Source: Longimicrobiales bacterium (GTDB lineage: Bacteria; Gemmatimonadota; Gemmatimonadetes; Longimicrobiales; Gaopeijiaceae). Taken from it: a DNA stretch of 64,000 nucleotides. Below, in pieces: positions 25,372 through 64,000 of the stretch (positions are counted from its first letter, which is position 1; every line of letters starts with the position of its first letter). The stretch lies in the NCBI GenBank assembly GCA_965219445.1, contig CBDCNQ010000005.1, positions 1,638,420-1,702,419 of the forward strand, written 5' to 3'. Both the position numbers and the translations under genes were made by a program. Under the pieces are notes generated by a model. It saw only the letters and a program-made list of their open reading frames with translations. It did not search any database and was not told the origin of the DNA.

Positions 25372-25382
25372 GACGGTTGATC
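25372..25382 (-). repeat. Second attL-type core
   Basis: GACGGTTGATC is the reverse complement of GATCAACCGTC; same junction as 1661. Confidence 0.8.
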
Positions 25383-26576: not shown

Positions 26577-26608
26577 CGTCTTCTCCTTGTCCCCCCTGAA
26601 TGCGCCGG

Positions 26609-27100
26609 TCACTCGGCGTCGCCGCGGCTCAACGCGATCTGCTTGCGGATCCACTCGTCCACCTCCGCCTCGATCCAGCCGACAGCGCGCGCGCCTAGCT
26701 GGACGGGTCTGGGGAAGGACCCCTCGGCCAGCCGCACGTAGATCGTGCTCCGCCCGAGCCCCGTGCGAGCTTGCACGGCCGGGAGCCGCACGATGCGGAT
26801 CGGCACCTCCATTTCATGCACCATGGTTCTCGTCATCTCTCTGCCTCTCCGTTCTCTCGGGGATGAATCCCGGAGCCGGTCGCTCCGGGAGGAAACAGGG
26901 TCCACACCGGCCTCGTCGAAGCCTTCCATGAACGCCAGGAGCTGATCGGCCGTCGCGAGCGTCGGGGAGCGGCCATGGCGTAGCTCACGCACCAGGTTCG
27001 GATCGCCTACCGCCTGGCGGCCAAGCGTCGCCGGCGCCACTCCCGTGCGTTCGAGGAACGCATCCACTCGCACCATGAAAAGCCCCTTCAGCGTCTCCAT
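26609..27100 (-). CDS. HTH-AlpA fusion regulator, copy 2 (diverged)
   Basis: FLERTGVAPATLGRQAVGDPNLV..LRHGRSP plus an AlpA domain. Confidence 0.8.
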   Translation of the reverse strand: METLKGLFMVRVDAFLERTGVAPATLGRQAVGDPNLVRELRHGRSPTLATADQLLAFMEGFDEAGVDPVSSRSDRLRDSSPRERRGREMTRTMVHEMEVPIRIVRLPAVQARTGLGRSTIYVRLAEGSFPRPVQLGARAVGWIEAEVDEWIRKQIALSRGDAE

Positions 27101-36894: not shown

Positions 36895-37374
36895 ATGATT
36901 CCTGCCCTTGTTCCATTGCCAGGTTCTCCATGGCCGGTTTTGCCTCCTGGGTTACACCAGGCGAGCCTCGATGACGTTGCGACAACCTTCGCAACCAATG
37001 CCTGGCGGAGGGAGCTCTTCGACGGGCTTGTTGATGCCGCTGGTCGGCTCCGGGGAGCTGGATGCCGGACAGTTTATCTCGATGGGAGCTATGTGTCGGG
37101 AAAGCCGAAGCCTGATGATTTCGATGCGTGCTGGGACCCGTCCGGCGTCGATCCGGGCAGGCTGGATCCCGTGTTTCTGCAATTTGCGAACGGGCGAGAG
37201 GCTCAGAAGGCGGCTTTCCGGGGAGAGTTTTTTCCCTCGTCGATGATGTCCGTGGATGTCGGGCAGGTGTTTGTCGATTTCTTTCAACAGGATCGTTTCA
37301 CAGGAAAACCAAAAGGGATCATCTCCATTCCGCTTTCGGCCAATCTGCTTCTTTCGAGGAAGGTGCAGCCATGA
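36895..37374 (+). CDS. DUF6932-like minimal nucleotidyltransferase-fold protein
   Basis: LPPGLH, YLDGSYVSGKPKPDDFD (GS...DxD), KPKGII. Confidence 0.75.
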   Translation: MIPALVPLPGSPWPVLPPGLHQASLDDVATTFATNAWRRELFDGLVDAAGRLRGAGCRTVYLDGSYVSGKPKPDDFDACWDPSGVDPGRLDPVFLQFANGREAQKAAFRGEFFPSSMMSVDVGQVFVDFFQQDRFTGKPKGIISIPLSANLLLSRKVQP

Positions 37375-38648: not shown

Positions 38649-39741
38649 AGATATGTATGTGCCGGCCCTGCGGTGGCGGCAAGGCGAGTATCAGGCACTT
38701 TTCCGGCTTACCGATGCCGCCAAGGCTCGCACTGTCCCTTTCATCACGATTCCCGAAGTCGAATTCGATTTCGAGACACGGCAGCCGAAGAGCTCGGTCC
38801 AGGAGCACGTTCATCCGTTTGCCAAGCGCTTCAAAGCCAAGTGGGGCCAGCGTCCCGCATGGGTCAGCGTTCATCCGGGCATCGCCAATGAGCCCATGGT
38901 TGATGGCCGGGATATATACACCTACGTATTCGAAGCCCTGCGCGCATTCCAGGCGAACGCGACACCAGCGATTCCTCTGCACGCGGCCTCTCCCATTGTT
39001 GCCTCTGCCGCGGCGATCGTTGCTACCGACGGTCACGGCGTAGCGGTTGAAATACGTCTTGAAGATCTGATGAAGTCCGATGCACGCACCCGTATCGACA
39101 GATTAGCGGCATCACTCTCTGTGGCGATCGACGAGGTTGACCTAGTGGTCGATCTCCGTGCGCCGAACTTCGAGCCGTATGACGCTTTCGCAAGCGCGCT
39201 GATTGCCGTCATATCCCGGCTTGGTGACCTCCATACCTTCCGGAATTTCGTGGTGATCGGAACGGCCATTCCCGCGACTTTCAAAGATGTTGCCAAGGGC
39301 GCCGACCAGCTTCCGCGCCATGACTGGCTTTTCTACCGTGTACTTCTCGGCCGATTGCCGGCCGGTATGCGGCAGCCGAATTACGGGGACTTCACTATTG
39401 TCCATCCGGAATTCAAGGCGCTGGATATGCGCATGATAAAAGCGGCGGGCAAGCTCGTGTACACGACGCCTGGAGCTTGGGAAGTGCGCAAGGGCGGGGC
39501 ATTCCGCGACAACAGTGCCCAGATGCATGATCACTGCGCGTCAATCGTGGCGTCGAGAACGTTCAACGGTGCCGGCTACTCAAGCGGAGACGATTACATC
39601 GCCAAATGCGCGGTTCACAAGGTGGGTCCGAGCAATCAGACACGCTGGAAGGATGTGGCAATCAACCACCACATCACGCATGTACTGGGCGAACTCTCCA
39701 CGCTTGCCGCTGCACCATATATGTCCGGATCGAGGCCGTGA
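38635..39741 (+). CDS. Beta-family (phage P4/T4 beta-like) protein
   Basis: YVPALRWRQGEYQAL, NYGDFTIVHP, KLVYTT...W.V.KG, SSGDDYI, W....INHHIT. Confidence 0.8.
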   Translation: MILTKDMYVPALRWRQGEYQALFRLTDAAKARTVPFITIPEVEFDFETRQPKSSVQEHVHPFAKRFKAKWGQRPAWVSVHPGIANEPMVDGRDIYTYVFEALRAFQANATPAIPLHAASPIVASAAAIVATDGHGVAVEIRLEDLMKSDARTRIDRLAASLSVAIDEVDLVVDLRAPNFEPYDAFASALIAVISRLGDLHTFRNFVVIGTAIPATFKDVAKGADQLPRHDWLFYRVLLGRLPAGMRQPNYGDFTIVHPEFKALDMRMIKAAGKLVYTTPGAWEVRKGGAFRDNSAQMHDHCASIVASRTFNGAGYSSGDDYIAKCAVHKVGPSNQTRWKDVAINHHITHVLGELSTLAAAPYMSGSRP

Positions 39742-41864: not shown

Positions 41865-43133
41865 TCACGCGCGTTCCACCCTGGTACTCTCTCCGGCTAG
41901 GTACGCCTCCCAGTCGTCCATGAGCCGACGGCGGCGCTCGAACAGGTCGGAGCGCATGTAGGCGGCCTCGACCGGGTTCCGGACTACATGGGCCAGGGCC
42001 GCCTCGACGACTTCGCGGGGGTGGTCCGTCTCTTCGGCGGCCCAGTCCCTGAACGACGACCTGAACCCATGCGGCACCGCCGCGATCCCGTGCTTCCTGA
42101 GCAGCCGGCCCATCTGCTCGCCGCCCATCTCTCTGCCGCGCTTGCCGACGAACACGATCGGACTCCCGCCGCCGCCCAGCTTCCGCGCCGCGCCGAGAAT
42201 CTCCAGCGCGCGGCCGCACAGCGGCACACGGTGCGCGCGCAGGCTCTTCATCCGGCTCGCGGGGACCGTCCAGACGCGCTCCTCCCGGTCGATCTCGCTC
42301 CATACCGCCCCGCGGACCTCGACGCCCCGCGCCGCCGTGAGCACCATGAACTCGAACGCCAGCGCGTCCACCTTGCCCGCCTTCGCCGCCCGGACCTTCT
42401 CGATGGCCGCCCCCACCTCGCGGTGAGGCAGGGCCTTCCGGTGTCTGACGACATGTTGCTGGGAGCCGAGCACCGGCAGGAGCCGGTCGCACGGGTTGTC
42501 CGTTCTCCAGTCCATGGCGATGGCCCATTCCAGCACGGCGCGGATGCGGTGGCGAACGATCCGGGCCGTCGGCGGGTTCGCGTGCCAGATGGGTGTGAGG
42601 ATCTCGAGCACGTCGGCGCTCGTCATCTCGGAGACCGGCACCCTCCCGATCCTTGGGAAGACGTGAATCTCGAAGCTGCGATACCAGTTCCTCGGCACCG
42701 CCGCGTTGCGCCATCCGGCGCTCTTCTGCTCGATGACGCGCTTAGCGGCCTCGGCGAAGGTGGGAATGCCCGCCGAACGCCGCTTCTCGGCCAGCGGATC
42801 GCCGCCCGCGCGGGCAAGCTTGCGGTTGGCCAGCGCCTGCTCCCGCGCCTCGGCGAGCAAGACCAGTTGGGCGTTGCCGAGTCCGAGCTCGCGCTTGCGG
42901 CCCCGGATCACGAGCCGCTGAATCCAACTCCGGGTTCCGGTCTTCTGGACGTAAAGGTAGAGACCGTTGCCATCGCAGTGCCTGCCGGGCGGTGCCGAGC
43001 GCACGAAGGCGGTCGAGAGCCGCTTGTGGGGATGGCGGCCCTTGGGCTTGCCTAGGCGGCGCTTGACGGGAGATCGAATCACATTATCCATCCCCCAATC
43101 ATAACTGGGATGGAACGGGATCGCAAAGGGCAC
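41865..43133 (-). CDS. int: P4-like tyrosine integrase (third, diverged)
   Basis: DGNGLYL, LTAARGVE, HGFRSSFRDW, LAH, AYMRSD; AT-rich att-like region upstream (43140-43330). Confidence 0.95.
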   Translation of the reverse strand: MPFAIPFHPSYDWGMDNVIRSPVKRRLGKPKGRHPHKRLSTAFVRSAPPGRHCDGNGLYLYVQKTGTRSWIQRLVIRGRKRELGLGNAQLVLLAEAREQALANRKLARAGGDPLAEKRRSAGIPTFAEAAKRVIEQKSAGWRNAAVPRNWYRSFEIHVFPRIGRVPVSEMTSADVLEILTPIWHANPPTARIVRHRIRAVLEWAIAMDWRTDNPCDRLLPVLGSQQHVVRHRKALPHREVGAAIEKVRAAKAGKVDALAFEFMVLTAARGVEVRGAVWSEIDREERVWTVPASRMKSLRAHRVPLCGRALEILGAARKLGGGGSPIVFVGKRGREMGGEQMGRLLRKHGIAAVPHGFRSSFRDWAAEETDHPREVVEAALAHVVRNPVEAAYMRSDLFERRRRLMDDWEAYLAGESTRVERA

Positions 43134-43712
43134 TGCTGGCAGAACGAGACAAGAAAGAAACTACGTAACCTGTTGTAAATACTGGATGTTATGCACCTAC
43201 CCGGAAATCATTGGACGGTATCGGATTCAAGTTGTGCGTTTTACGGCAAGAAATCGTCTAAGTTCAACCAGGACTGGTCGGAAAATCCGTAAGCGAATGA
43301 TATACAACATCTTAGCTTACATGGCTCCGGTTGCTGTATCACTTCAGATATCCAATTGTGCGCTGGAATCCATGCGACCGCATCGGAGGTCGTCGGACGG
43401 TTTTCGGGCGATTCGACCATCGGCTGCGGGTTGTGGCCTCGTGCCAGAATCGTCTTGACGACGCGCCCCGAGGGTAGGAGTACGCCCGTCGCTTCTGCCA
43501 ACCGCTCCCAGGCCGCCGTTCCAACTCGGGCATATAGCTCCTTCACTCTCTCGACAGCTTCACCTAAGGCCGCCCGTCCACGGTGAATGCTGGACGGGCC
43601 GAGCGTGCCGGCGGTTCGGTTCAGGCTGGCCGTAGCGTGGCAGCCTTGACCCGGGCCCCAGGTGCAGGGAAACTCCTTGAGGTGTCGCACGATCCGAGAT
43701 TCGAGCAACGGG

Positions 43713-44309
43713 ATGCTTCCAGATTACCCAAGTATCAAGAAGAAGGTCAACAGCCTGTTGAGGCGTTACCTCAAGGAGGAGATTGTCAGGCGCTCACCTA
43801 TCCTCAAGGAGATCCGCCAGACGGTGCAGCACGAGGGCCGCGAGGGTACCTACGAAGACGTAGACGGGAGAGAGAGCCCGATCGAATACAAGGAGGTCGC
43901 GGCGGGCTTCTCGCTGACCCGAGACGAAATGCGACAGCCGAACTTCCAATTGGTTGTGTCGAAGTTCGCTGAAATGGCGGAGACCTTCGCTGAAGAACAA
44001 TCGAAGATGCTCTTCGCCACCGTCTCCGAGGCAGCCGAGTCTGTCGGTAACGTTGTCGATGCGAAAGGCAAGCTGACCAAGGAGGCTTTCCTCGAATTGA
44101 TGCGCAAGATGCAAGGGAGCTTCAATCCCCAGACCGGTGAACCTCAGCGCCCGACGATGGTCCTTCACCCGGACACGCTGGCGAAGATCAAGGACGACTT
44201 GGAGACCTGGGAGCAGGATCCAGAGTTCATGGCTGCGCTGTCGGCCATTGAACAGCAACAGCGGCTCGACTGGCGTGATCGAGAATCTAGTAGACGTCTG
44301 GCTGACTGA
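43713..44309 (+). CDS. Hypothetical protein resembling a truncated HK97-fold capsid subunit
   Basis: EEIVRRSPIL, KEVAAGFSLTRDEM, FAEMAETFAEEQSKMLF, LTKEAFLELM, MVLHPDTLAKI; overlaps the next gene by 35 nt. Confidence 0.6.
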   Translation: MLPDYPSIKKKVNSLLRRYLKEEIVRRSPILKEIRQTVQHEGREGTYEDVDGRESPIEYKEVAAGFSLTRDEMRQPNFQLVVSKFAEMAETFAEEQSKMLFATVSEAAESVGNVVDAKGKLTKEAFLELMRKMQGSFNPQTGEPQRPTMVLHPDTLAKIKDDLETWEQDPEFMAALSAIEQQQRLDWRDRESSRRLAD

Positions 44310-44665
44310 GGCATCCGAGCGCTCCTACGAAGCGGCTTTCGGTCAGCTTCTTGTCATCGAAGGCCATCGTGTCATCCAAGGCCCGATGCATCACGCCCAC
44401 GAGCACGGCAAGGACATGATCGCGTGGGATTCTGAAGGCAATCTGTGCGCTTACCAACTCAAGGGGGGAAAGAAAAGCAAGCTCGATAAGGCAGCGGTTG
44501 ACGAGGTTCAGGATCAGTTGTTTACGGCTGCGGCAACCGCAGTGATGCACCCAAGCCTGCCCAGCCCACGTCCCCCTGATCGCGTCTATCTCGTCACCAA
44601 TCAACACACCACTGGCCCGGCCCAGCGGAACCTGTCAACGCCAGTGAGACACTCTTGGAAATCAA

Positions 44666-45673
44666 TTAGAGAGCAATCTCCTGTGTCGTGAGGGATGGGG
44701 TGGGAGGATTGATCCAGACGGCCTCCGGGAGTGGTTTAGGCTTCGGCTCACCGGAGACGAAGCGCTCGGGATGAGCGGCCCATGCCTCACGGAGCACGGC
44801 CTTCCTGCAGGCGATGATCCGATCGGCGTGACCGAAGTGGACCTGTTCGGGGGTCAGCATCGAGATGCCGCCATGGCGGTGCTCGGCATTATACCAACGG
44901 AAGAACGAGCGACAGAAGGTCTTGGCTTGCCCCTGATCCCCGAACCGGCCGGGAAACGAGGGATGGTACTTCAAGGTCTTGAACTGAGCCTCGGAGAACG
45001 GATTGTCATCCGAGACCTGGGGTCGGCCCAACGAGCGGGTCACGCCGAGATCGGCGAGTAGTTGAGCCGTGCATTGGCTCGTCATCGGAGCCCCTCGATC
45101 GGAATGCAGGGTCAGGAGGTGGGGCTGGACGCCATGCTTCAAGCAACTCTGCTGGATCAGCCGGCTGGCCAGGGCAGAGTTCTCCCGATCCGCCACCATC
45201 CATCCCACGACGTAGCGGCTGAAGATGTCCAGGATCACGTAGAGGTAGAAGTAACTCCACTTCTTCGGCCCCAGCAGCCGGGTGATATCCCAGGACCAGA
45301 CCTGGTTCGGGCCCCTCGCCATCAACTCGGGCTTCTGGTATTTGGGATGACTCCGCTGCGCTCGACGCTCCTGAACCGGCACCTGGGAAGCCAGAACGCG
45401 ATACATCGTACGCTCGCTGCACAGGTAGACGTCCTCGTCGAGCAGCGTCGCCACCACCTCGGCTGGGGACCGGTCCACGAACCGCTCCGAACACAGGGTG
45501 TCGAAAATCTTGTCCCGCTCCCTCTCACTTAAGGCCCGGGCGGGGGTCGGGCGGGGCTGCTGATGCCCGGTCGATGCACTCCGACGACGGTAGAACGTGG
45601 CTCGCGGCACCCTGAGCGCATCGCACGCGGGCTTCACCCCTACGTGCTTGGCTAGCTCCTGGGTCGCCTTCAT
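44666..45673 (-). CDS. IS3 transposase OrfB (DDE)
   Basis: WSWDIT, LDIFSRYVVGW, HSDRG, DNPFSEAQFKTLK. Confidence 0.95.
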   Translation of the reverse strand: MKATQELAKHVGVKPACDALRVPRATFYRRRSASTGHQQPRPTPARALSERERDKIFDTLCSERFVDRSPAEVVATLLDEDVYLCSERTMYRVLASQVPVQERRAQRSHPKYQKPELMARGPNQVWSWDITRLLGPKKWSYFYLYVILDIFSRYVVGWMVADRENSALASRLIQQSCLKHGVQPHLLTLHSDRGAPMTSQCTAQLLADLGVTRSLGRPQVSDDNPFSEAQFKTLKYHPSFPGRFGDQGQAKTFCRSFFRWYNAEHRHGGISMLTPEQVHFGHADRIIACRKAVLREAWAAHPERFVSGEPKPKPLPEAVWINPPTPSLTTQEIAL

Positions 45674-46119
45674 GAGTTCGTCCCGTCCTCGAGGCTCAAT
45701 CCCAGCAGCCCTGCAACTTTTCCCTGGACGTCGATGATCAAGTGCGCCTTCTGGAGCTCCTTCTCGAGGCGAGTGTTCTCGCGCTCCAGCTTGCGCACCT
45801 TCTCCTCCAGCGGATTGCGCTCGCGCTTACGGCCTCGTTTCTTCGACAGCGCTTTCAGGGACCCGCTATGCGCCGCCTTGCGCCATGTCGTCAGGTGCGA
45901 CGAGTACAAGCCCTCCCGCCGTAGGAGTCGGCCAACCTCTCCGGGCTCCGTGCACCGGTCCGCTTCTTCGACGATCCGCAGCTTGTACGACGGAGCGAAC
46001 CGCCGGCGCAGCGGCCTATCTACCACCTCCGAGTCCGCAGGAGCTGCCGCGCTTCGCTTACCGTCCCAGGTTGGTGGGGCTATTCCATTCTCTTTCATTC
46101 TCTCTCGGTGTCTCAGCAT
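45670..46119 (-). CDS. IS3 OrfA
   Basis: HTH plus coiled coil; ATGA overlap with orfB. Confidence 0.9.
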   Translation of the reverse strand: MLRHRERMKENGIAPPTWDGKRSAAAPADSEVVDRPLRRRFAPSYKLRIVEEADRCTEPGEVGRLLRREGLYSSHLTTWRKAAHSGSLKALSKKRGRKRERNPLEEKVRKLERENTRLEKELQKAHLIIDVQGKVAGLLGLSLEDGTNS

Positions 46120-48304
46120 CCTCGGTTTCTCTGCCTTCGCCCTACTCTAATTCCTTAGCTGCTCCGTGTCTCACGTAAGTTGGCAGAGAGGGCAGGGGCA
46201 GATCCGTGCCTTGAGCGAGGCCAACCGCAGTCGTGGATTGGCACCGCTGCAACTGATCGAGCGCGCCGATCTCGCCTCCCGATTCGTAGCCGCCGAAGGC
46301 CGGTTCTTTCCCAGTTCTCCGCAGGCTCTCAATACCTTCCTCTCGCTGTTCTTGGCCGATGGACGGGGGGAGTTGCCGAGGCACGACTTCTTTAGGCTGC
46401 TCCAAGAAATCCTTCCGGTGCGTGGGAGCAGACCTAGAGCCGCTGCCGCGGGCCGAGCTATCTCGGCCGCAGCCCTCACGACGGCGTTTGCTCTACGGAG
46501 ATGGGCAGACCTAGATAACCACGCGGAGATTGCGATGGGCTGGATTTGCTACGCAACTCACGTCCTCAGGGCAGCGGAACGATGTCGGCTTGGTCGGTCA
46601 CACTGGGAAAGACCCTATCGATTGGCTCTGGAGGAAGCTCGTCGTCACGCTAGACATCTACTCGATGAGGCGAGCGCAGCCGACGACCTAACCAAACCTG
46701 ATCCTGCCGAACCGCTTGTCTACGCGGCACGCGTGGTCAAAGTGTGCGGTTTGGTATCGGCTTGGACTGTTTCGGAGCGGATCGAGTTCGGTGTCCATCG
46801 TGCCGACCGCGGAGTTGCGGGCCGGCTTGTATTGCGAGAACTAGACTGCCTTCGGGTCTTGGGAGAGGTGCAGGCGCCGGACTACTTTCTTTCCATCTTG
46901 GCAGTAGGCGAAGCAGGGAACTACCGCGTTGCGACGTCAATGCTCTTTCGTTGGCTGAACAGCGTGGCAGCCGCGAATCAGATCGGTTCGACGGCATCCC
47001 TTCCGGATCCTTATCACTCCGTTGAAGATATCCTTCACGACCGCCTCCCTCCGGAGGGTGCCGTCCTTGCCGATGAGGACTTCGCTGGGAGCGCCTACAC
47101 GGCCCACATTGGTGTACGCTGGGCTGTGAGACGCTTGTGGCGCCAAGCCCTTAACGCCAGTTGGGGGAACGTAAGTAGGATTAGTCACTATAGTTTTGAG
47201 CCCAGTGGGCCTAGCGACTACCTTGCGCCTAAGAGTAGCCGCGGTAAGCTGAAGAGTTGGTTCTATCCGATCCCGACGAGTTGGTCCGCCCTTCGCTCCG
47301 AGGCTGAGGAATGTGATTTCTCTCCGCTGCCGCGCGTGTTGCTGAAGTGTCCGGAATTCGTGCCGTTCTATTGTCTCTCCATGCCGCACCGGTTCAACAG
47401 CATCGTTGCGGACCTCCTGGACCAGCTGGCCTCCACCGGCCGGGTGTCGTGACGTAGGGTTTGCAGCCGGATTGAGGGACGGCATACCCGGGGCACGGAC
47501 CTGGCGAGTGCCCGACTCGGTTGGGGGTCCGACCGGGCCGCGTCGCTTCAGCTAGCTCGGGACTCCGGCACCGGCGAACGCGTCGAGCGATGAAGAGGAG
47601 CGCGATCCTTGAACGCCGGAAGATTCCTCTAGGCAATGACCATCACCGGCTCGGGCCATGATCGCGCTCTGGCCCACGCGGCCGCGTCAGATCCAGCGGC
47701 CGCGCGACCTCGCGGCGAGCGTCCCGAAGTAGTCGGCGTACACGACTCCGCAGAGCCGCAAGAGGATCGAGCCGAAGGACAACCTCCGGGTACGTCTGGG
47801 AAGGTCGCCGGATCGGTTGGACGCCCTCTCTATGGCCCTCTGGCAGGAACGCGGCCCCCGACGCTCGACCGGCCTACACCTGTTGAATAGCTGAAAGCGT
47901 CCAAGAGCCCGTTCCATACTGCTGTCAGTGTCCGTCGAATTCGTTTGGGCTTCCACAGGCGTGGCGAGTGCTAGGAACGCCAAGCCAAGCGATAGTCGCC
48001 TCATCGAAAGTCCTATCTGCTCACCGTGCCTTTGCCAACTTACTCGCGCTAGCCACGAATATCCCACCAGTGATGTGAACGGCGCGGAACACTGCTGGCT
48101 GGTTCCTAATGCTGCCAAGCTGGCTCCAATCGCCATCAGCCGGCCTACCGAAGTTGGCCGCAAGCTGGGTTGTCGACCGGTTCATGTCCACCTGGGTCGA
48201 GCGAGTGTGCGTCTCTTGACCAAGTCCCATGCCTAACGGGGCAACTCCTCGCCCCGGGCTAGCAGGATCCATGTTGTCCGCGCCCGCGTGACGCCGACGG
48301 AGCA

Positions 48305-51435: not shown

Positions 51436-52042
51436 TCGACGAAAGAAGATCTGTTCAAGATGGCAGCGATCGGAAACGTCGGCTTTGGCTCCAGCTTCGC
51501 TTTTCTTCCTATCAAGGACCGCTCCCTCTTCTGTGGCTGCCCACCTCCGGACCCGGGGGAAGATCGCTCCCGCGGATCATCCTAGCGCCAGTGATGGCAG
51601 TTCCGCTATCCCTGGGGTCGCCACATTCTCACACAATGGGCGCTCAGGCGTAGCCCGGTGGGGCAATCTGCCCTGATATATACGATCGCGATCGCGATCG
51701 TATTTCGCACGAAATATTTCAGCAGCTCCACCTCCGAACTACGTCGAGGGGTGGGTCGCCGCCCTCGAGGAGGACCCAAGGGAGATCCGCCGCGCCGCGG
51801 CCGACGCACAGAAGATCTCCGACTTCGTGCTGGCCCGAAGCCGTGAGCGTGAAGTGGAGCGCGAGCCGGTGGCCGCTACCCGCGCTCCCGCCCGAGAGCC
51901 CGCCCTCCGGCCGGAGCTCCCGGTTCCGACCCGGAGCTTCGGCCCGAGCCGCTGACGGTCGGTGAGGAGCCAGGAGATGTTCGACCGCACGGTCGAACCG
52001 GACCCGCGGACCGCCGCGCCACCCAACCGCAATCGCTACCGC

Positions 52043-52885
52043 ATGCGGGACGGCCATCGCCGAGAATACGCCGCGAGCAGGGACCGCGGGTCCACCTCCT
52101 TCCCCGAACGGTGCCGTGGGGCGCTCGCCGACATCGGCATCTACGGCACCGTCTCGTACCGCGATCTCGCCGAGGCTCACTTCGGCGGCCATCCCTACAC
52201 CACGCGGCGGGCCGTGAACGCCTGGGTCCGCGAAGGGCTCGCCCAAGAAACCCGAGCCACTGGACCCAACGGCAACCCGTTCAAGGTGCTGACCCTCACG
52301 CGGAAAGGCGTGGCCGAGGCCCGGAAGCTGGCCGCCGAGCGGGGAATCGATCCCGGCCAGGAGATCGGGTTCGCACGTACCCGGCCCGCCGAAGCCGCGC
52401 ACGACACCGCCATCTATCGGGCCTGCCGCCAGGAGCACCAACGCCTGATCGAGCAGGGGGCCACCGTCCGCCGTGTGCGTCTCGACGGCGAGTTCAAGAG
52501 CGCCGTAGCACGCAAGAGCGAGTCCGCGCGTGCGAAAGACGGCCGGCGGGCCGCGGACGCCGAGCGGCACCGCGTGGCCGAGGAGCTCGGCTTGCCGATT
52601 GATGCCCAAGGCCGGGTGCTCTACCCGGATGCGCAGATCGAGTACACCGACTCCGAGGGACGCACCGGCCGCGTCAACATCGAGGTCGCATCGGGCAACT
52701 ACCGTGCTCGCTCCATACGTGCCAAGGTGGCCGCCGGGTTCCGGATGCACGCCAACGGACCGGCCGCCGCGCGGGTGCTTAGGGCGCTCGGCTGCGAGGA
52801 TCATGGCTCCTCCCTACGGGGTCCGGCCGAGCGGGACCCGGCCGCCCTCGAGCTCAAGAGCGACGCCGAGGGCGACTGGGACTGA
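52043..52885 (+). CDS. Winged-helix plus PD-(D/E)xK-like protein, resembling replication-relaxation (Replic_Relax) family
   Basis: ALADIG.YGTVSYRDL, LTLTRKG, AHDTAIY, YPDAQIEY...VNIEV. Confidence 0.55.
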   Translation: MRDGHRREYAASRDRGSTSFPERCRGALADIGIYGTVSYRDLAEAHFGGHPYTTRRAVNAWVREGLAQETRATGPNGNPFKVLTLTRKGVAEARKLAAERGIDPGQEIGFARTRPAEAAHDTAIYRACRQEHQRLIEQGATVRRVRLDGEFKSAVARKSESARAKDGRRAADAERHRVAEELGLPIDAQGRVLYPDAQIEYTDSEGRTGRVNIEVASGNYRARSIRAKVAAGFRMHANGPAAARVLRALGCEDHGSSLRGPAERDPAALELKSDAEGDWD

Positions 52886-53856
52886 GGGGCCCGGACACAA
52901 GCCGAGAAGAACAGACAGCGTCCGCCCGCCTCATGAAGGCCGAGCTCCGCCAGTTCGTTGCACACACCTGTGAGCCTTGATTCCGCAGCCCTGCGCGACC
53001 CAGCGTGTAGCGATATTGCCTACTCGTTCCCCCTTCACCGGCCACGCGCGCCGTTAGGGCGCGTTGGAGGCGAAGATGGCAGGAGTGAGCTTCCGCATCG
53101 GCGATGTCTTTCCCCACGATGATGCGGTGTCCCAGTTCCTGATTGGCCTGTGCATGGCAGTCAACGACGCACGCTGATAATGCGGCGCATGGAGCACATC
53201 TACGATACACCGGAAGGCCAGTCGGGCGAGAGCACCTACTACTTCTACCTCACCTGCGCCTACTACCGAGAAGCAACGAGATTCCTGGAAAACCGGTTCG
53301 AAGACCCGGGGGTCGCCTCGTTCCTGGAAGACCTGCCGCCCGAGGGTCGCGCGCAGCTGGAAAAAGTGAAGGCGTCCTTCACTCCTTGGGACGGCTCCTT
53401 CGTCAAGGATGTCCTGCTACCAGTCAGAAACGTCGTTTTCCATTACACGCCGAGGCTACCGCAACAGCTGCATCCCCTCAAGCACGGGACGGGACGGGAC
53501 GGGACGGGACGGGACGACGCGGTCCACATCTGTGTCATGGCCTGCCAGGCGGCTTTCCCCCGGCCCCTGAGGCGATTAAGCCGTCGCCCTGGTTCCTGAG
53601 GATGCCCGTCCTTCACGGCCCTCCACAGGTGCTGAGACTAACATAGGATGTGGTACTGCTCTTGGGGGCAGGTCAAATGCTGGACACGATTAACGCGAAT
53701 CGCGGTCTCGAAAGGATCGGCCGATCTGGTGGAAAGACCTTGAACTACCTTAAGTTGTTGACAAGATAGAAGATAGTCGCCCGATTTGGGCCCAATGCAT
53801 GCTTGGTGAGGAGAAACACAGTTCGCCTCGTTGCGGGATGAATGGAGAAAAGACCA

Positions 53857-55079: not shown

Positions 55080-57425
55080 CTAAGCCTCGCCCGGGGTCGC
55101 GAAGCGGTAGCCGACGCCGTGCTCGTTGAAGATGTAGGTGGGATTGGCGGCGGCGTCGCCGAGCTTGTGGCGGAGCTTCTTGACGACGGTGCGGACGCGA
55201 TCGGTGTCGTCCGAGCCTCGGCGCCCCCACACCTGTCGTAGGAGCGCCTCCGTAGTGACCACGCGTCCCCCGTGGAGCGAGAGGATGCGCAGCAAGTCGA
55301 ACTCGGTGGCCGTGAGCGGGACCTCGCGGCCGGCCACGCTAACCCGGCGCCGGCCGTAGTCGATGGCGAGCTCCCCGTGCACGAACGTCTCGGGCACGGC
55401 CCGGTTCCGTAGCGCCGCCTGGACCCGCGCCACGAGCTCGGTCGGCGAGAACGGCTTGACGATGTAGTCGGCCGCGCCGCTCTCGAGCGCCCGCGCGATC
55501 GTCTCGTCGCGGCCGTAGCCGGAGATGAAGATGACCGGGAGATCGGCGAGTTCGGGGACCCGCTTCATCAGCTCGATCCCGTCCGTTCCGGGGAGCATGA
55601 GGTCGAGAAGGACGAGGCGGGGCTTCTCGGCGCGGATGACGCCGGAGAGTCCGTCTGGATCGCCCGTCACCAGCGGGGCGTAGCCCGCATCGGAGAGGAC
55701 GTTGCGCACGTAGCGTAGCGTCTGCGGGTCGTCGTCCACGACCAGGATGCGCGTCTTCTCCCGCCCGTCCCCAGGCGGGCGTGGCCGGCCGCTGGGCGGA
55801 GCCTCCTCGGGCGGGGCTGCCTCGGGCGTGGCCGCCCCGGCCACCGGGATCGTGAAGGTGAAGCGCGCGCCCTGGTCCGTCCCCCCGCTCTCGGCGCGGA
55901 TACGGCCGCCGTGCGCCTCGACGAGGCCCTTGCAGATGGCGAGGCCGAGCCCGGTGCCTCCAGCGAGGCCGGCACGCTTGTGGAAGAGGTGCGGGAGCCG
56001 GTCGGGCGCGATCCCCCGGCCCTCGTCCGAGACCGAGAGCGCGATGTAGCCGCCCTCGCACGCCGCCTGGACCCGGATCAGGGAGGACGCGGGAGCGTGG
56101 CGGGCCGCGTTCGAGAAGAGGTTGTTCATCACCTGCACGATGCGCTCCGGGTCGGCCATCGCACGCGGCAGGTCCGGCGGCAGGTCGATGAGGACGGCGT
56201 GCCGGCCTCCGCCGCTCAGGAACGTGCTGCGGGCCCGGTCCACCAGCGCGGCGACGTTCGCGGGCTCGGGCGCGACGGTGAGCGTGCCCGCCTCGATGCT
56301 TCCCGCGTCCAGAAGGTTCGCGATGAGGCCCCTCATGTGGTCGGCCTGCCCGTCGATGATGCGGAAGAACTGGAGCAGCTCGGCCTGGGGCGGGACCGGC
56401 ACGGCGCCGAGCACGGTCGCCGTCGAACCCTTGATCGAGGTCAGCGGGGCGCGGAGCTCGTGGCTCACCATCCCGAGGAACTCCGCCCGCTGCCGCTCGA
56501 GCTCGTCGAGCGGCGCCAGGTCCTGCATGGTGACGACGACCGACACGACCCCTCCCTCCTCGGAGCGGATCGGCGTGACGTTGATGAGCATCCGGACGCT
56601 CCGCCCGTCGGGCACCGACAGCTCGACCTCCTCGGCCCGCATCGTCGTGGCGCTCCCGAGCTGCCGGGCCAGGGGCAACTCCTCTAGGGAGACCTCCCGC
56701 CCGTCGGAGTGCCGGCACGTGATCACCTCGAGCAGCTGCTCCGGTGGACGGCCCGGCGTGCGGAGCCCCTCGACGATGCGCCGCGCCTCGCGGTTGAACG
56801 AGACCGGATGGCCGGTGCCGGCATCGAACACCGCCACGCCGACCGGCGAGGTCTCGATGAGCGCCTCGAGGTCGGCCCGCGCCCGCTCGAGATCGCGGTA
56901 CGTGCGCGCGTTCGCGATCGCCGTCGCCGCCTGCGAGGCGAAAAGCACCAGGATCTCCTCGTCCTCGCCCGTGAACGCCTCGCCGTCCTCCTTGTCGCTG
57001 AGAAAGAAGTTGCCGAGATGCTCGCCCCGGTGGTGCATCGGGGTCCCATGCAGCGACCTCGACGTCCAGGGCGTCGGCGAGAGGCCGAGCGAGTCGAGGT
57101 AGCCGGGCAGATCCGCCACCCGGAGCGGCTTCGCCTGGTCGCGAAGGTGTTCGAAGAATCGCCGCCCGTCGGACCACTCCACCATCTTCCGGTGCTCTTC
57201 GGGAGAAAGGCCGGATGTGACGAAGTCCTGGACCTCTCCCTGCTCGTCGATCGTCGTGATCACGCCCAAGCGGGCGCCGGTGAGCGCGCGGGCACTCTCG
57301 ACGACCTCCTCCAGCACGGTGGCCACGTCCAGGCTCTGGCTGATGCGGAGGATGGCCGCGCTCAGCCGCGAGATGCGGTCGTCGGAGGGCCCGCTCCCGG
57401 GCCCCGTAGGGTCTCGATCGTTCAA
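55080..57425 (-). CDS. Cytoplasmic hybrid GAF-PAS-HisKA-HATPase-REC-OmpR wHTH protein
   Basis: SHELRAPLTSI, NLFSNA, DEGRGI, GTGLGLAI, VVDDD/LLDLMLP/KPF, LTATEFDLL...GVGYRF. Confidence 0.92.
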   Translation of the reverse strand: MNDRDPTGPGSGPSDDRISRLSAAILRISQSLDVATVLEEVVESARALTGARLGVITTIDEQGEVQDFVTSGLSPEEHRKMVEWSDGRRFFEHLRDQAKPLRVADLPGYLDSLGLSPTPWTSRSLHGTPMHHRGEHLGNFFLSDKEDGEAFTGEDEEILVLFASQAATAIANARTYRDLERARADLEALIETSPVGVAVFDAGTGHPVSFNREARRIVEGLRTPGRPPEQLLEVITCRHSDGREVSLEELPLARQLGSATTMRAEEVELSVPDGRSVRMLINVTPIRSEEGGVVSVVVTMQDLAPLDELERQRAEFLGMVSHELRAPLTSIKGSTATVLGAVPVPPQAELLQFFRIIDGQADHMRGLIANLLDAGSIEAGTLTVAPEPANVAALVDRARSTFLSGGGRHAVLIDLPPDLPRAMADPERIVQVMNNLFSNAARHAPASSLIRVQAACEGGYIALSVSDEGRGIAPDRLPHLFHKRAGLAGGTGLGLAICKGLVEAHGGRIRAESGGTDQGARFTFTIPVAGAATPEAAPPEEAPPSGRPRPPGDGREKTRILVVDDDPQTLRYVRNVLSDAGYAPLVTGDPDGLSGVIRAEKPRLVLLDLMLPGTDGIELMKRVPELADLPVIFISGYGRDETIARALESGAADYIVKPFSPTELVARVQAALRNRAVPETFVHGELAIDYGRRRVSVAGREVPLTATEFDLLRILSLHGGRVVTTEALLRQVWGRRGSDDTDRVRTVVKKLRHKLGDAAANPTYIFNEHGVGYRFATPGEA

Positions 57426-57568
57426 TGCTCCACTCCCGCCGAAGGGTGAGGCGGAGCGGACGAGGCTCCGGCCGATCGGCCCGGCCGCCTTCCGCCGGAC
57501 CGCGGGGGGTGGAGGATAGCGCTCTTCGCGCGTGAAGTCACTAAAGGGCCACGACGCTCGCCCGACAA

Positions 57569-57586
57569 GTCACAACTCACTCACAA
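57569..57586. promoter_or_regulatory. OmpR/PhoB-type tandem box candidate
   Basis: TCACAA at 57570 and 57581 (11-bp period); TTGTGAC also at 57653 and 58611. Confidence 0.4.
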
Positions 57587-57607
57587 AATAGCGCGTAGCT
57601 TTCCGGA

Positions 57608-57639
57608 TAGCTCTCGATAATTGTAGTTATCGAGAGTAA
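57608..57639 (+). repeat. lox/dif-like recombination site, left
   Basis: TAG-CTCTCGATAA-TTGTAG-TTATCGAGAG-TAA: 10-bp palindromic arms with an asymmetric 6-bp spacer. Confidence 0.88.
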
Positions 57640-57686
57640 CCCGCGGCAAGGATTGTGACCAGAGAGGCCCCCGAGTTCTTCGGGGC

Positions 57687-58688
57687 TCATCTGCGTTTCT
57701 GAAGCCGTGCCAGCTGTGCGGCGCCGTTGCGCTTGGCCAGCAGCCGCTCGCCGTAGCGCTGCACCATCTGGGCGTTCTTCCAGCGCCCGGCCTGCATGAT
57801 CGCCGGGATCCCGATCCCTTTGGCGATCATGTCCTGAGCCGCGCCCACGCGGGGGCTGTGCCCGGAGAGCCGCCGCACGATCTGCTCCGGCAGCCCGGCC
57901 CGTTCGGCCATCGCCTTGTAGATGCGCGGCACCTGGCTCTCATGCAGTTGGCCGCCCAGCGTGCCGTCCTTGCGCATCGAACGGAAGAGCGGCCCGCCAC
58001 TGATCCCGCTCGCGCCCAGCCACTCCGAGAGCAGCCTCACGCTGTCTCGGTGCAGGTAGAGCATCGCGCCGCCGCCCTCCGGATCGGTCTTCGCGCGGCG
58101 CACGAGGAGCGAGGCCGAGCCGCCCCTTTCTATCGTCACATCAACGACTTGCAGCGCGACCAGCTCGGAGCGCCGGAGCATGGCGTCGTAGGCCACGGCC
58201 AGGATCGCGCGGTTCCTGACGTCGATCACCCGGTCGCCCGCGGCCTCCATCAGGCGCCGGCGGAGCGCCCAGGTCAGACCCTGCACCTGCCTCTGCCGGC
58301 ACCCCCTCTGCCGGTGCATCCGCTTCAGCGCCCGCCGCACGGTCACGTGCTCGAGCGGGCTCCGCTCCCCGGCCGCCTTGTGCACGGTGGCGACGCTCGA
58401 GACGTAGCGCCGCACGGTGGCCGGCGCTCGCTCGCTCGCCATCGCCTCGACGTAGGCCACCACCGTGGCCGCGCGCGCGGGCAGCGGAGAGAGCCCCCGC
58501 TCGGCGCACCACGCCGCGAACCGTTCCAGGTCCGCTCGCACCGCTCGCACGGTATGGCCGCTCAGGGCGCCGCGGGCGTCCTCCAGGTAGGCGGTCAGGC
58601 GCTCGCCGGTTTGTGACTTTCGAGTGGTGGGGTCGCGAAGCCCGGACACACCTGCTGGGGCTAAAATCCGCATAAGTGCCCCCTGCAC
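57687..58688 (-). CDS. Cre-like tyrosine recombinase
   Basis: SAM-like N domain; LRRSEL, KTD, GHSPRVGAAQDM, GRWK and QRY (R-K-H-R-W-Y set as in Cre). Confidence 0.92.
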   Translation of the reverse strand: MQGALMRILAPAGVSGLRDPTTRKSQTGERLTAYLEDARGALSGHTVRAVRADLERFAAWCAERGLSPLPARAATVVAYVEAMASERAPATVRRYVSSVATVHKAAGERSPLEHVTVRRALKRMHRQRGCRQRQVQGLTWALRRRLMEAAGDRVIDVRNRAILAVAYDAMLRRSELVALQVVDVTIERGGSASLLVRRAKTDPEGGGAMLYLHRDSVRLLSEWLGASGISGGPLFRSMRKDGTLGGQLHESQVPRIYKAMAERAGLPEQIVRRLSGHSPRVGAAQDMIAKGIGIPAIMQAGRWKNAQMVQRYGERLLAKRNGAAQLARLQKRR

Positions 58689-58709
58689 AATGACATACAG
58701 CCAAAAAGT

Positions 58710-58741
58710 TTACTCTCGATAACTACAATTATCGAGAGCTA
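58710..58741 (-). repeat. lox/dif-like recombination site, right (inverted)
   Basis: Exact 32-bp reverse complement of 57608-57639. Confidence 0.88.
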
Positions 58742-58776
58742 AATCCGCGCGCGGAAACCGCAGGAGAACGAGCGAA

Positions 58777-61700
58777 GTGGACATCGCGATGACTAGGACA
58801 CCGGACGGACGCGGCCGCGAGCGCCGCACGGATACCATCTTGCCGAGCGTCTTAAGCGCGAGGGAACACGGCTGCCCGCCTCCACGGCCTGACACCCTGC
58901 CGCCACGCCGTGGCGGCCGTCCTTCCTCAAAGACCGCATCCGCCGCCGGCCGGCCGGCGGGTTTCGCGCGCCTGCGCGGTGCGCGGCGCTCGCTTGTCGG
59001 CTCCGCCGGGGCGCTGGCCGCCGCGGCGCTGCTCGCGCTCTCCGGCGCGCTCGCCCTCCCGGCCACGGCCACGGCCCAGACTAACGTGCTCGTGAGCAAC
59101 GTGGGAAAGAGCGACAACGGTACAAGCGGTACTCCGTCCGCCTCCGTCCCCATGGCCCAAGGGTTCGAAACGGGTTCCGATGCGGACGGCTACGACCTCG
59201 GCAGCGTCGTTCTGGAGTTCGGGAGTGCGCCGACCGGGACCGGCACGGTGAGGGTCACGGTGAGGCAAGAGTCAACGCTAACACACCCAGTAACCGGCCT
59301 CATTTATCCCAGCCCTTTCGAGCTGTACTGGCTGGCCAACCCCACAGCACTTTCGTCCGGATTGAACGAATTCACAGCCCCGCCAGGCGCCACGCTGGAG
59401 ACGAACACGACCTATTTCGTGATGGTGTCCTACAGCACAAGCTCCGGCGGCCCTAGTTGGGACCGCGTACTGTTGAGCAGTGGTCTGGACGCCGACGCTG
59501 CCACGGGCTGGGACATTGATGACGCGTACCAGCAGTACAGCAGCATGGGTTGGGAGGAGGAGTCGAGTGACCGAGCATTTAAGATTCAGGTCAGGGGCAC
59601 CACCGCGATGGCCGCGCCGGCCGTGCCGACGAACTTCACCGCCGCGCCGGGCAACGCGGAAGTGACGCTCGCCTGGGACGCGCCGGCATCGGGTTCGGGC
59701 GTCACGCGCCACGAGTTCCGGTACAAGACGGACGGGAGCTATCCCGTGACCTGGACGCAGATTGCGGGCAGCGGGGTGGGCGGCGCCAACGAGGCCGGGT
59801 ACACGGTGCCGAGTCTCACCAACGAGACAGAGCACACCTTCGAGTTGCGCGCGGTGAACGCCGGCGGCGGCGGCGCGGCAGCGGAGTCGGACCCGGTGAC
59901 GCCGACGCCGGGCATCTGCGACCGCACGCAGCAGGTGCAGGACCGGATCGTGACCTACGTGAACGCGATCTTCAACGTCGACTACGACTGTTCGGAGGTG
60001 ACGGTGGCGAACCTGGCCAGGTTGAATAATATGGCGCTCGGCAACAAGGGGATCACGTCGCTCCAGGCGGGCGACTTCGCCGGCCTGACGGGGCTGGAGA
60101 GGTTGAGCCTGGGCGACAATTCTCTGACCGCGCTTCCCTCGGGGGTGTTCTCCGATCTGACGTCCATGACGAGCCTCTGGCTGGCCGCCAACTCGCTGAC
60201 CGCGCTTCCCGAGGACTTGTTTTCCGGTCTGACGAATCTGGAGGAGCTCACACTGAAAAACAACGAACTGGAAACGCTTCCTGCCGGGGTGTTCTCCGGA
60301 CTGAGGGCCGTGGGGACTATTCAGTTGCAGGAGAACCAACTCGAAACGCTTCCCGAGGGGGTGTTCTCCGGACTGACGGCGCTGGGCACCATCTGGCTGC
60401 AAGACAACACATCGCTGGGATCGCTTCCTGCGAACCTGTTCTCGGGGCTCACCAGTCTGAGAACAGTCGATCTACACAACATCGGCCTGACCACGCTACC
60501 CGCAGGGCTGTTCTCCGGCCGGACGAACATGTATTCCATCGACCTGCGTGAGAACGAACTGGAAACGCTCCCCGCGAACGTGTTCTCGGGGCTGACGAAG
60601 CTGAACGGCATCACTCTGACCGACAACGATCTGCGTTCGCTTCCCCCTGGGCTGTTCTCCGGCCTTACGGCGCTGCAGAAAATCCGTCTGGCAGGCAACA
60701 AACTGAGTGCGCTCCCCGACGGGTTGTTCTCCGGGCTGACGTTGCTGACATTCGTCAGTCTGGACCGCAACACCGTCGATCCTCTGCCGCTCACGGTGAC
60801 CCTGGACAAGGTGGGGACCGACCAGGTGCGGGCGAAGGTGCGGGCGGGGGCGCCGGGCACGGTCGATTTTACGGTGACGGTGGCGAACGGGACGCTCGCG
60901 GGCGGTGTGACGACGCTCAGTGTGGCGCAAGGCTCGGTGGAAGGCACCACCGCGGTCACCGTGATCCGCACGGACGGGACGACGGCGGCAGTGACGGCGG
61001 ACGTCGACCTGACGACCCAGCCGACGTTCGCCCCGGGGGTGTACGTCGGGGGGTCAACCTTCGTCCGGTCGACCTCGGGGCTGCCGGCGACGATCCTGCC
61101 GGGCACCACGCAAGTGCCGCCGCTCCCCGCGCCGACCGGTTTCAGCGCCGAGGCCGGCGACGGCGAGGTGACGCTGTCCTGGACCGATCCGGGGTCGGGT
61201 TCGGACGTCACGCATCACGACTACCGATTCAGGACCGACGGGGATTACGGGGACTGGATCGAGATCGACGACAGCGGCCCGGGCGAGACCAACGCGGCCG
61301 GGCTTCACGGTGACGGCGGACATCGTCAACGGCAGAGCCTACACCTTCCACCTCCGCGCGGGCGGGGACGACGGCGACAGCCCGGCGGTCGAGGCGGGTC
61401 GGGTGACGCCGACGGGACTGCCCCCCAGAGTCACCTCCGTGGTGGTCGCGTCCGCGCCGCAGTCGGGGGACACGTACCGCTCATACGAGACGATCGTGTT
61501 CACGGTGACGTTCAGCGAGCCGGTGGAGGTCAAACCACACGGGCGACTGAGGCTGAAGGTCGGTCTCGACAATCCCGGCGGGGCGTCCGGGAGCACGGTG
61601 GAGGCTGTGTTCTCGGGCCTCTCGCAGAGCCAGCGGCCGACTGCCGATACCCCGCAGGCCCGGCTCGCCCGGCATATGCATTTCAAATACAAGGTGCAGC

Positions 61701-64000
61701 TGTTCGACCGCGACGAGGACGGTGTGCGCATCGGCGCCAACGCGTTGCGGCTCGCCTCCGGGGCACGGATTCGAAATGAGGTCGGCAGCGACGCGGAGTT
61801 GGACCATGTCGCGCTCGGTCCGCAGTCCGACCACAAGGTTGACGGGAGGGCGGACGTGCCGATGATCCGAGGGATCGAGGTGGTCTCGACGCCGCGGCTG
61901 AGTTCGAAGGGCACCACGACCAGGGACACCTACGGCGAGGGCGAGAACATCCGCATCGAGGTGCGCTTCGACCAGCCGGTGGTGGTCGAGGGCGAGCCGA
62001 CGTTCGCGCTCGAGGTGGGCAATCCCTGCCGGGCGGTGTGCGAGGCCGACTACGCGTCGGGGAGCGGCACGAACACGCTGGTGTTCGCGTACCTGGTGCT
62101 GGAGGTCGACATCGACCGCAACGGCATCGCGATCCGCGGCAACCCGATCGAGGTGGTGTCCGGCGACCGCATCCGCAACGCCGCGGACCAGGAGGCGCAC
62201 CTTTCCTCCAAGGGGAAGGGCACGCAGCGCGGCCACAAGGTGGACGGGTCACGGGCGGCGGGGCCGTACCTGTCGGTGGAGGACGCCGAGGCGCACGAGG
62301 CCGACGGCGAGATGGAGTTCACGGTGCGCCTGGAGCCGCACGGCCTGGGCATCGTGACGGTCGACTACGCGACGGCCGACGGCTCGGGGGACAGGGGCGC
62401 GGTCGCGGGCGAGGACTACACGGAGACGAGCGGCACGCTGAGGTTCAATTCGCTGGAGACGGAGCGGACGGTGTCGGTGCCGATCACGGACGACGACGAG
62501 GAGGACGACGGGGAGACGTTCACGCTGGTGCTGAGCAACGCCTTGGGCGCGGGGCTCGCGGACAACGAGGCGGTGGGCACGATCCGGAACAGCGAGACGA
62601 CGCCGGCGGCGGAGCTGACGGCGGAGTTCCGGGACATGCCGGAGACGCACGACGGGGAGAGCGCGTTCACGTTCCGGGTGGCGTTCAGCGAGGACATCGG
62701 GATCAGCTTCCGCGCGCTGCGCGAGGACGCGTTCACGGTGACCGGGGGCCGTGTGACGCGGGGCACGCGGGTGGACGACCGGCGCGACCTGTTCGAGATG
62801 ACGGTCGAGCCGGACTCGGACGGGGCCGTGACGATCGAGCTGGCGGCGGGCCGCGAGTGCGCGACGTCCGGTGCGATCTGCACCAAGGGCGAGAACCGGC
62901 GGCAGTTGACCAACGGCCCGTCGGCGACGGTGGCGGGTCCGGCGGGCGGCTCGGGGCCGCCGGAGCTGACGGCGTCGTTCGAGGGCATGCCGGCCAAACA
63001 CCGTGGCGAGGGCGGGTTCCACTTCCGGGTGGCGTTCAGCGAGGACATCGGGATCAGCTTCCGGGCGCTGCGCGAGGACGCGTTCACGGTGACCGGGGGC
63101 CGTGCGACGCGGGGCACGCGGGTGGACGACCGGCGCGACCTGTTCGAGATGACGGTGAGGCCGGACTCGGACGGGGACGTGACGATCGAGCTGCCGGCGG
63201 GGCGCGAGTGCGCGACGTCCGGTGCGATCTGCACGAAGGGCGAGAACCGGAGGCAGTTGACCAACAGCCCGTCGGCGACGGTCAAGGGTCCGGCGGCGAG
63301 CTCCGCGGCGGCCGCCCCCGGCTGGCCAGACCGGGCCGCGCGCCTCTGCTCCGCGCTGGGCATTGGAGAGGAGATGACCCGGACATCAATGGTCGCGGCG
63401 TTGTGGGAGGACGGCGATCCCGGCAAAGACCGGCTCGACGCCTTGGACAGTCTCGGCAACGGGAACGGAGGGTATGACCTCGGCGACATGCTCGCCTGGG
63501 CCGCCGCTGCCGCGGGGGTGAGGCATCCGGGCCGGCCGCCGGCTCCGGACCGCCCTCCCCGCCCCCCGCGCTCCCTGCGTCGGGGCCGGCGGGAGGGGCC
63601 AGCTGGCGGCGGAAGCGCGCGCGCGGCCCTGCCCGCCGCCGCCGAACGGTTCCCGACCCACCCGCCACCGGTTCCGCGACCCGCCGGTCCGGGTGGTTGC
63701 GGACGGCGCTGCTGGTGGCGGTGACCTCGGTCTGGGGCTGCGGGGACGGCATCGTCGACCCGCGGAATGACGCACCCCGGTATGACGTAGCCAACGCGTC
63801 GGTCGTGGATCCCGGCCCTCTGCACGTTCGGTTGACGGCCCCGCCGCAGGCCCGCGACATCGGAGCCATGCTGGTGATCGAGGGTCCGGCCATCGACTCG
63901 CTGCAGGCGCCGGGTCTCGAGATGTTCGAGACGGAAGAATCGTCCTCGACGAGACGCGAGGTCGTCATCGCCGGTGCGCTGCCGCCAGACGGGCCCGTGC
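58777..64000 (+). CDS. Giant secreted/surface protein (beta-rich N domain, 2 FN3, 11 LRR, Ig-like repeats, Calx-beta); frameshifts at about 61300 and 63500; runs off the window
   Basis: CAGGAG RBS, long signal ending ATATA-Q; the FN3 frame continues as AAG-FTVTADIVNGRAYTF after one extra G; DYATADG...AVAGEDY (Calx-beta). Confidence 0.85.
60013..60780 (+). repeat. Array of 11 LRR modules of about 72 nt
   Basis: LxxLxxLxLxxNxLxxLPxxxFxG periodicity. Confidence 0.9.
62612..63295 (+). repeat. Tandem ~330-bp domain duplication
   Basis: FRVAFSEDIGISFRALREDAF...GAICTKGENRRQLTN occurs twice, nearly identical at DNA level. Confidence 0.9.

Follow-up and report, generated by a model that had tools for sequence, protein, structure and literature searches.

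The invertible segment of the Salmonella Hin/hix system is about 1 kb long, contains the recombinase gene and carries a promoter directed, in one of the two orientations, at an operon for a surface structure (accessible text of PMC5903667 and PMC9368917). The cassette described here, found in a 64,000-nucleotide stretch of DNA (the window), has a similar plan, since it also holds its own recombinase gene and a predicted outward promoter within about 1 kb. Hin, however, belongs to the serine invertases and depends on Fis, HU and an enhancer, whereas the window enzyme is a Cre-like tyrosine recombinase with sites of 13-8-13 geometry. The window-type module differs further in being multi-copy, in its distribution over several phyla and in its location next to a hybrid kinase, where a predicted promoter with OmpR boxes begins. 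The cassette would thus work like Hin but stands outside the Hin type because its recombinase is a tyrosine enzyme.

Enzyme and site resemble Cre/loxP and the other Cre-type pairs (Dre, Vika, Panto, Nigri, VCre and the YR series; PMC10250229, available part). Cre is the best structural relative of the enzyme and the catalytic set is complete, while the site is palindromic, has an asymmetric spacer, adjoins GATA and lies near the gene, as in these pairs. In contrast to them, the window has two inverted sites that enclose the gene, in a chromosomal setting beside surface-protein genes.

Inverted repeats and a tyrosine recombinase also govern phase-variable surface structures in the fimS/FimBE, mrp and mad systems and in the Clostridioides difficile cmr and flagellar switches (RecV), and the cmr switch precedes a two-component operon (PMC5903667, accessible sections). 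The window cassette shares with this group the inverted repeats, the tyrosine recombinase and a neighbouring surface gene. The segments of these systems are, however, 150-320 bp long and intergenic, with the recombinase encoded outside. Unlike in these systems, the regulator gene of the window lies outside the switch and is predicted to act on it instead of being merely its output. For FimE, expression of the recombinase is described as dependent on the state of the switch, and such a dependence has been proposed at a BREX locus (PMC9881135, available text).

A literature search that covered mostly papers free of subscription found no description of a self-inverting Cre-like cassette beside a kinase and a surface gene. 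Phase variation is offered here as a natural role for a Cre-type enzyme. A phase switch placed before genes for LRR, FN3, cadherin and Calx-beta proteins would bear on how sponge symbionts control the display of such proteins. Its occurrence in records of Gemmatimonadota, Acidobacteriota, Latescibacterota and Gammaproteobacteria would make bet-hedging in uncultured bacteria testable by long-read orientation counts.

Organization of the cassette and its flanking genes

Table 1. Features of the cassette region, in positions of the window.
Feature	Position	Strand	Details
Hybrid sensor kinase/OmpR-type regulator	55080..57425	-	GAF-PAS-HisKA-HATPase-REC-Trans_reg_C (winged helix), 781 aa
Predicted kinase promoter outside the cassette (inferred)	57513..57541	-	GTGACT-17-TATCCT; -35 overlaps first box half-site
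Predicted OmpR/PhoB-type operator	57537..57586	+	four GTCAC-like half-sites at 57537, 57548, 57569 and 57580; two pairs, 11-bp period
Predicted -10 element TAGCTT	57596..57601	+	11 nt past last CAC, ends 6 nt before left site; box-dependent promoter reading into cassette
Left lox-like site	57608..57639	+	32 nt; central overlap TTGTAG at 57621-57626
Predicted outward promoter at recombinase 3' end	57620..57649	-	TTGCCG-18-TACAAT; -35 inside cassette, -10 in site spacer
Cre-like tyrosine recombinase	57687..58673	-	328 aa; catalytic set R167, K195, H272, R275, W298, Y307
Right lox-like site	58710..58741	-	exact inverted copy of left site
Giant surface-type protein gene	58789..64000	+	choice-of-anchor R, FN3, LRR, Calx-beta; runs beyond window end

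The two lox-like sites are exact reverse complements separated by 1070 nt, and they form the sole inverted repeat of at least 20 nt with arms less than 3 kb apart in the window. The preliminary description had reported two identical inverted 32-bp sites enclosing only a Cre-like recombinase gene; this arrangement is confirmed, and so are the arms and the asymmetric central hexamer TTGTAG. The recombinase gene is the only one in the 1.13-kb cassette, which extends 47 nt 3' of its stop codon and 36 nt 5' of its start. The site can be parsed in the 13-8-13 geometry of Cre-type sites (PMC10250229, accessible text): it has the layout of the Cre site, is palindromic with a 6-nt central overlap and lies less than 1 kb from the recombinase gene. 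The palindrome is imperfect at the outer arm positions, with 3 of 13 mismatched at the left site. Two further candidate elements were discarded for lack of conservation among relatives, namely an antisense protein within the cassette (252-aa ORF, 57858-58616) and a terminator at the right site, whose T-run was compared by eye.

The recombinase is read from an ATG codon; an alternative GTG start, which would give 333 aa, is missing from the second genomic copy of the gene. A domain search matches the protein to Phage_integrase and SAM_1. Of its 18 matches in the PDB, 17 are to variants of Cre or Tre (lowest E-value 4.5e-29) and the remaining one is to XerD (2.8e-5), while Cre variants are the only matches under an E-value of 1e-25. 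Cre-type enzymes have 300-400 aa and the catalytic residues R-K-H-R-W-Y (PMC10250229, available part), with which the six residues listed in Table 1 align. The catalytic set is complete and the gene is intact. Against the XerC, XerD and XerA models of NCBIfam, whose cut-offs are 220-371 bits, the recombinase reaches 30-52 bits, which places it outside the Xer/integron type. By size, catalytic residues, Cre as best relative and site geometry, the recombinase and its site have the sequence properties of a Cre-type Y-SSR.

It is plausible from sequence comparison that enzyme and site form a new recombinase/site pair. The arm motif of the window gave no match in the supplement of PMC10250229, in which two rows have a related arm and a different spacer. 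No site pair was found in the plasmid-borne relatives L138 and L139 (46% identity). A phage origin of the cassette is without support, a single query with the recombinase having found no relatives in viral contigs.

The flanking genes had been assigned at the outset to a hybrid kinase/OmpR regulator on the left and an LRR/FN3/Calx-beta protein on the right, and the domain search agrees. The kinase retains its His322 and Asp608 motifs. The ATG of the surface gene is 47 nt from the right site, and these 47 bases are GC-rich and have no promoter-like match. The gene is interrupted in the window by a one-base difference. The end of contig C5 overlaps the start of contig C3 (C3:1-6845) at 99.97% over 6845 nt, with two single-base differences (window 61300 and about 63500). 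The split ORF of the window is likely a consensus error because the C3 form gives one frame of 1777 aa. FN3, Calx-beta, cadherin, LRR, SWM or Ig-like domains are found in cargo-side genes of 22 of the 24 loci scanned. A role of the LRR protein as type III effector was rejected, its matches to NCBIfam LRR models being far under the cut-off.

The exact lox-like site occurs six times in the genome. A second true cassette is present at C2:192433-193656, 98.6% identical over 1224 nt; it includes 90 nt of the kinase-side leader and no kinase. The identity between the two copies stops where the right site ends on its outer side, after which different secreted-type genes follow on C2. A count of three cassette copies in the genome was rejected, as the site pair on C3 is the same locus as the window by virtue of the contig overlap.

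Orientation and distribution among related loci

Related loci were drawn from GTDB contigs, JGI metagenomes, which gave one close locus, and whole-genome searches. The set of 67 distinct loci was obtained from 92 by requiring at least 50% recombinase identity, excluding four duplicates of the window genome's own loci and collapsing repeats; it merges two L097 copies into one row and is a subset of the matches listed. Both sites are found in 54 loci, and in 52 of these they are inverted and have identical overlaps; the direct orientation was found in none of the 54. Sixteen overlap types are present across the loci, which could provide a set of natural enzyme/site pairs for genome engineering. 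Within the site pairs, 2 of 327 bases differ in the overlaps versus 127 of 1404 in the arms. Random pairing of overlaps gave a mean of 8.4 and a maximum of 18 identical pairs (10000 shuffles) against the 52 observed, kin loci being non-independent in this comparison. Strand exchange needs matching spacers (PMC10250229, accessible text).

State A denotes the orientation of the window, with the recombinase 3' end toward the kinase, and state B the flipped cassette. A leader model assigned 52 loci to state A and 2 to state B, and the follow-up added L094, L039, L024 and L056 to the latter. The 58 classified loci thus comprise 52 in state A and 6 in state B; L014 and the eight loci of a subfamily with 58-62% identity were left unclassed. 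A complete inversion is seen between L010 and L071, whose cassettes are colinear from site to site (92%) with both flanks reversed (96.6% on the leader side and 88.4% on the cargo side). The strand of the match also switches at a site between L009 and L013, L094 and L013, and L039 and L073. No single locus was seen in both orientations within one population: L009 and L013 belong to one assembly but diverge by 0.6-1.4%, the match changing strand inside the site (98.6% and 99.4%). L009 lies at a contig start, and its site is a hybrid composed of the outer arm of one L013 site and the inner arm of the other.

Comparison between loci thus finds both orientations among homologues with breakpoints at the repeats, the pattern by which invertons are recognized. 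The conserved inverted pairs with co-varying overlap, together with flipped relatives broken exactly at the sites, make inversion by these sites highly probable, and the enclosed enzyme presumably carries it out. The preliminary description had put forward a self-flipping switch and had suggested seeking the triad of kinase, recombinase and surface protein in related genomes; the first proposal is well supported by these comparisons, and the triad is conserved and present in both orientations. In a tree built by a quick method, of which the topology alone was used, the flipped loci are distributed over three starred clades, separate from one another, in which unflipped loci also occur. The window's own clade of 14 rows contains state A only.

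State B is uncommon (6 of 58). Its recombinase is broken in three of the six loci, and the adjacent kinase is intact in none of them. Among the 52 loci in state A the kinase was scored as intact in 25, as broken or absent in 15 and as undecided in 12 (a Fisher test gave p 0.006, to which no weight is given because the loci are related and two of those in state B lost the whole left side). State B may therefore be a dead end rather than a functional state. Logan contigs from six runs showed no strand-changing joint among the joints covered, 15 of 88 and 15 of 24; contigs of this kind, built from 31-letter words, should be unable to span a 32-nt repeat, and they drop rare variants. Contigs end within or beside the cassette in three assemblies, which gives a weak hint of heterogeneity in orientation.

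Several loci depart from the common organization. L019, L020 and L022 have a central overlap of 7 nt versus the usual 6 nt, identical within each pair, which is a natural variant of spacer length. Insertion sequences or transposase genes lie within or at the end of the cassette in L021, L094, L090 and L055; in L094 a Mutator-family transposase gene interrupts the 5' end of the recombinase gene and the cassette is apparently locked in state B. L056 has a third lox-like site (position 11941, overlap CTGGAA) 1.8 kb past a truncated flipped cassette, with a flank that resembles that of L101. The latter locus belongs to the second subfamily (L080-L083 and L098-L101, 58-62% identity), which features inverted site pairs with other overlap types, no kinase and a longer 3' inner region of 142-227 nt. 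Seven of its eight members have a common conserved outer flank unlike that of the window and without an Rfam match. In L101 this flank is missing on the 3' side, and the locus may be flipped. An Rfam search of 12 loci yielded no match to an RNA family.

Recombinase matches at an E-value of 1e-40 are present in 30 of the 314 genomes of the family, with up to 7 matches per genome. The named records belong to Longimicrobiales and Candidatus Palauibacter (both Gemmatimonadota), Vicinamibacterales, Latescibacterota and Gammaproteobacteria. Apart from L014, the rows from outside Gemmatimonadota are nested within those of Gemmatimonadota in the quick tree, which suggests horizontal spread. Integrase, AlpA, ArdC or similar mobile genes are found near the cassette in 11 of 22 long loci. 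The bacteria that carry the related loci are, we assume, sponge symbionts, in agreement with the cargo domains. This reading leans on the enrichment of LRR, FN3, cadherin and Calx-beta proteins in sponge symbionts (PMC11706023, available text) and loosely on PMC11651109 (accessible part). The bacterium of the window may likewise be associated with sponges.

Predicted promoters and the probable polarity of the switch

An approximate sigma70 matrix was used to survey promoters in 31 representatives, chosen to stand for 46 loci, a match being scored if it ranked in the top tenth relative to 60 shuffles of each segment; the L010 row carried 13 wrong site bases in its cargo segment. An outward sigma70-like match lies at the 3' end of the recombinase gene in 23 of the 31 representatives and at its 5' end in none. 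A match that would give the cargo gene its own promoter, between site and cargo, was found once in 31, whereas 28 of 31 have a match beyond the cassette that faces the kinase. The outward element of the window is the single match of an independent scan of positions 57300-59100 (shuffles 0.0 +/- 0.2). The outward match occupies two different positions among the lineages. It overlaps the site in the window's lineage, where recombinase bound at the site could block it. The segment thus has the Hin-type organization of a recombinase gene accompanied by an outward promoter, the promoter being recognized by its pattern.

The window state is likely OFF because the outward promoter faces the kinase and the surface gene has no promoter of its own. 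In state A expression of the surface gene would be off or low, the only promoter facing it being the predicted box promoter (Table 1), which lies at a distance of 1.1 kb and reads the recombinase gene in antisense. In state B the outward promoter would be brought beside the surface gene and turn it on. The cassette is therefore read as a self-inverting ON/OFF switch whose predicted promoter drives the surface gene only when flipped relative to the window, an interpretation that we consider probable. Control of the surface gene by the flip is, on the same sequence grounds, likely, and a switch of this kind would turn the surface protein on in part of the population only.

The preliminary description had gone further in proposing that the flip toggles a host-interaction protein against the signalling gene. 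In such an either/or toggle a single invertible promoter would serve the kinase in one state (A) and the surface gene in the other (B), and the two would be expressed in mutual exclusion. The first half of this model agrees with the predicted outward promoter, which is directed at the kinase in A and at the cargo in B, and the distribution of intact kinases (none of the 6 loci in state B, 25 of the 52 in state A) would also agree with it. The second half is doubtful, since the kinase has a conserved predicted promoter of its own entirely outside the cassette (28 of 31) and should therefore stay on after the flip. Close kinases also exist without any cassette (11 of 30 fetched loci). Strict exclusion between the two genes is consequently improbable.

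An equally improbable alternative is that the sites serve mainly to shuffle cargo between copies under one regulator module, flips being by-products without regulatory meaning. Genomes with up to 7 recombinase matches, many of them with identical sites, would agree with such exchange, and mobile genes accompany half of the 22 long loci. The end of the window/C2 identity at the outer limit of the right site would agree with it as well, as would the resemblance of the C2 cargo flank to those of L006-L008 despite a recombinase identity of only 83-85%; L087 and L092 each pair two overlap types that are both present in genome G330. A single site would suffice for shuffling, however, and yet selection holds both overlaps identical at each locus even where the copies of one genome differ (L004/L005, L016/L018 and L013/L053). 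The asymmetry of the promoters would also need another reason. As a secondary effect of an ON/OFF switch, recombination between sites of different copies probably does exchange cargo genes occasionally.

The least probable alternative is the reverse polarity, in which the surface gene is expressed in state A from the box promoter, driven by the regulator and transcribing across the cassette, while the flip only tunes or interrupts this transcription. State A is the majority (52 of 58), and the box promoter is directed at the cargo whichever way the cassette lies and directly precedes surface-type genes in cassette-free loci, but the transcript of state A would have to cross 1.1 kb without a conserved frame (all three antisense frames are stopped in 56 of 57 loci) and would run head-on into the outward promoter and the recombinase transcript.

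The predicted box promoter and its candidate regulator

OmpR/PhoB operators consist of 7-bp direct repeats with a 4-bp spacer (PMC4832192, accessible text), and the half-sites of the leader fit this tandem pattern. Boxes followed after 11 nt by TAnnnT, ending 6-8 nt before the site, are found in 24 of 31 non-redundant leaders, in none of 27 cargo flanks and in 0.0002 of shuffles. The adjacent regulator may act on these boxes, a cognate pairing suggested by position and by co-occurrence with the kinase family; the 15 of 52 state-A loci scored with a broken or absent kinase speak against it. This family is broader than the cassette (73 of 314 genomes), and 11 of the 30 kinase loci fetched are without recombinase. 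No lox-like site was found at the leader of these 11 loci; the same box/-10 motif is present in seven of them, and in five of the seven the next gene starts with a lipoprotein-like signal peptide (assessed by eye). The presence of the same box promoter directly before lipoprotein-like genes in cassette-free loci suggests, as the simplest history, that the cassette entered a surface-protein promoter under the control of the regulator, at the point where transcription begins.

From its position the box promoter would read the recombinase gene in sense in state B and in antisense in state A. By acting on it the adjacent regulator might bias the population back to state A, a feedback that would fit the excess of this state; such a bias has a chance somewhat below even, and regulator feedback on flipping in general is proposed with similar or slightly greater reserve. 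More tentatively still, the whole could be a horizontally shared, signal-coupled DNA latch, in which a Cre-type cassette sits at the start of the promoter of the surface target of a kinase/OmpR regulator. In state A of such a latch the cassette promoter would feed the kinase and the regulator would make antisense to the recombinase (stable OFF), while in state B the surface protein would be on and the regulator would drive the recombinase (timed reset). If this were true, several copies, some insulated by different spacers and some able to exchange cargo, would let symbionts display eukaryotic-like surface proteins in many combinations.

Two cassette-free paralogues of the kinase (61% identity) are encoded in the same genome (G000) at C5:21776-24085 and C5:427993-430296, with related CAC repeats upstream (seen by eye); they are possible trans partners or sources of cross-talk. 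In L001 (9430-9440) and L059, which belong to different genera, the leader is interrupted at the identical base, immediately ahead of the kinase -10, and continues into a mobile gene of one and the same multi-copy family; the four boxes are all retained. The window itself contains multi-copy mobile DNA at 10600-26900, 41865-46200 and 51700-52900, including segments of 6-9 kb repeated across C5, a P4-type integrase, an rve transposase element and one gene family with 12-38 genomic matches per query. Positions 37128-39741 code for an HTH protein with an IrrE-like peptidase domain (PF06114), followed by a Beta_protein (PF14350) gene.
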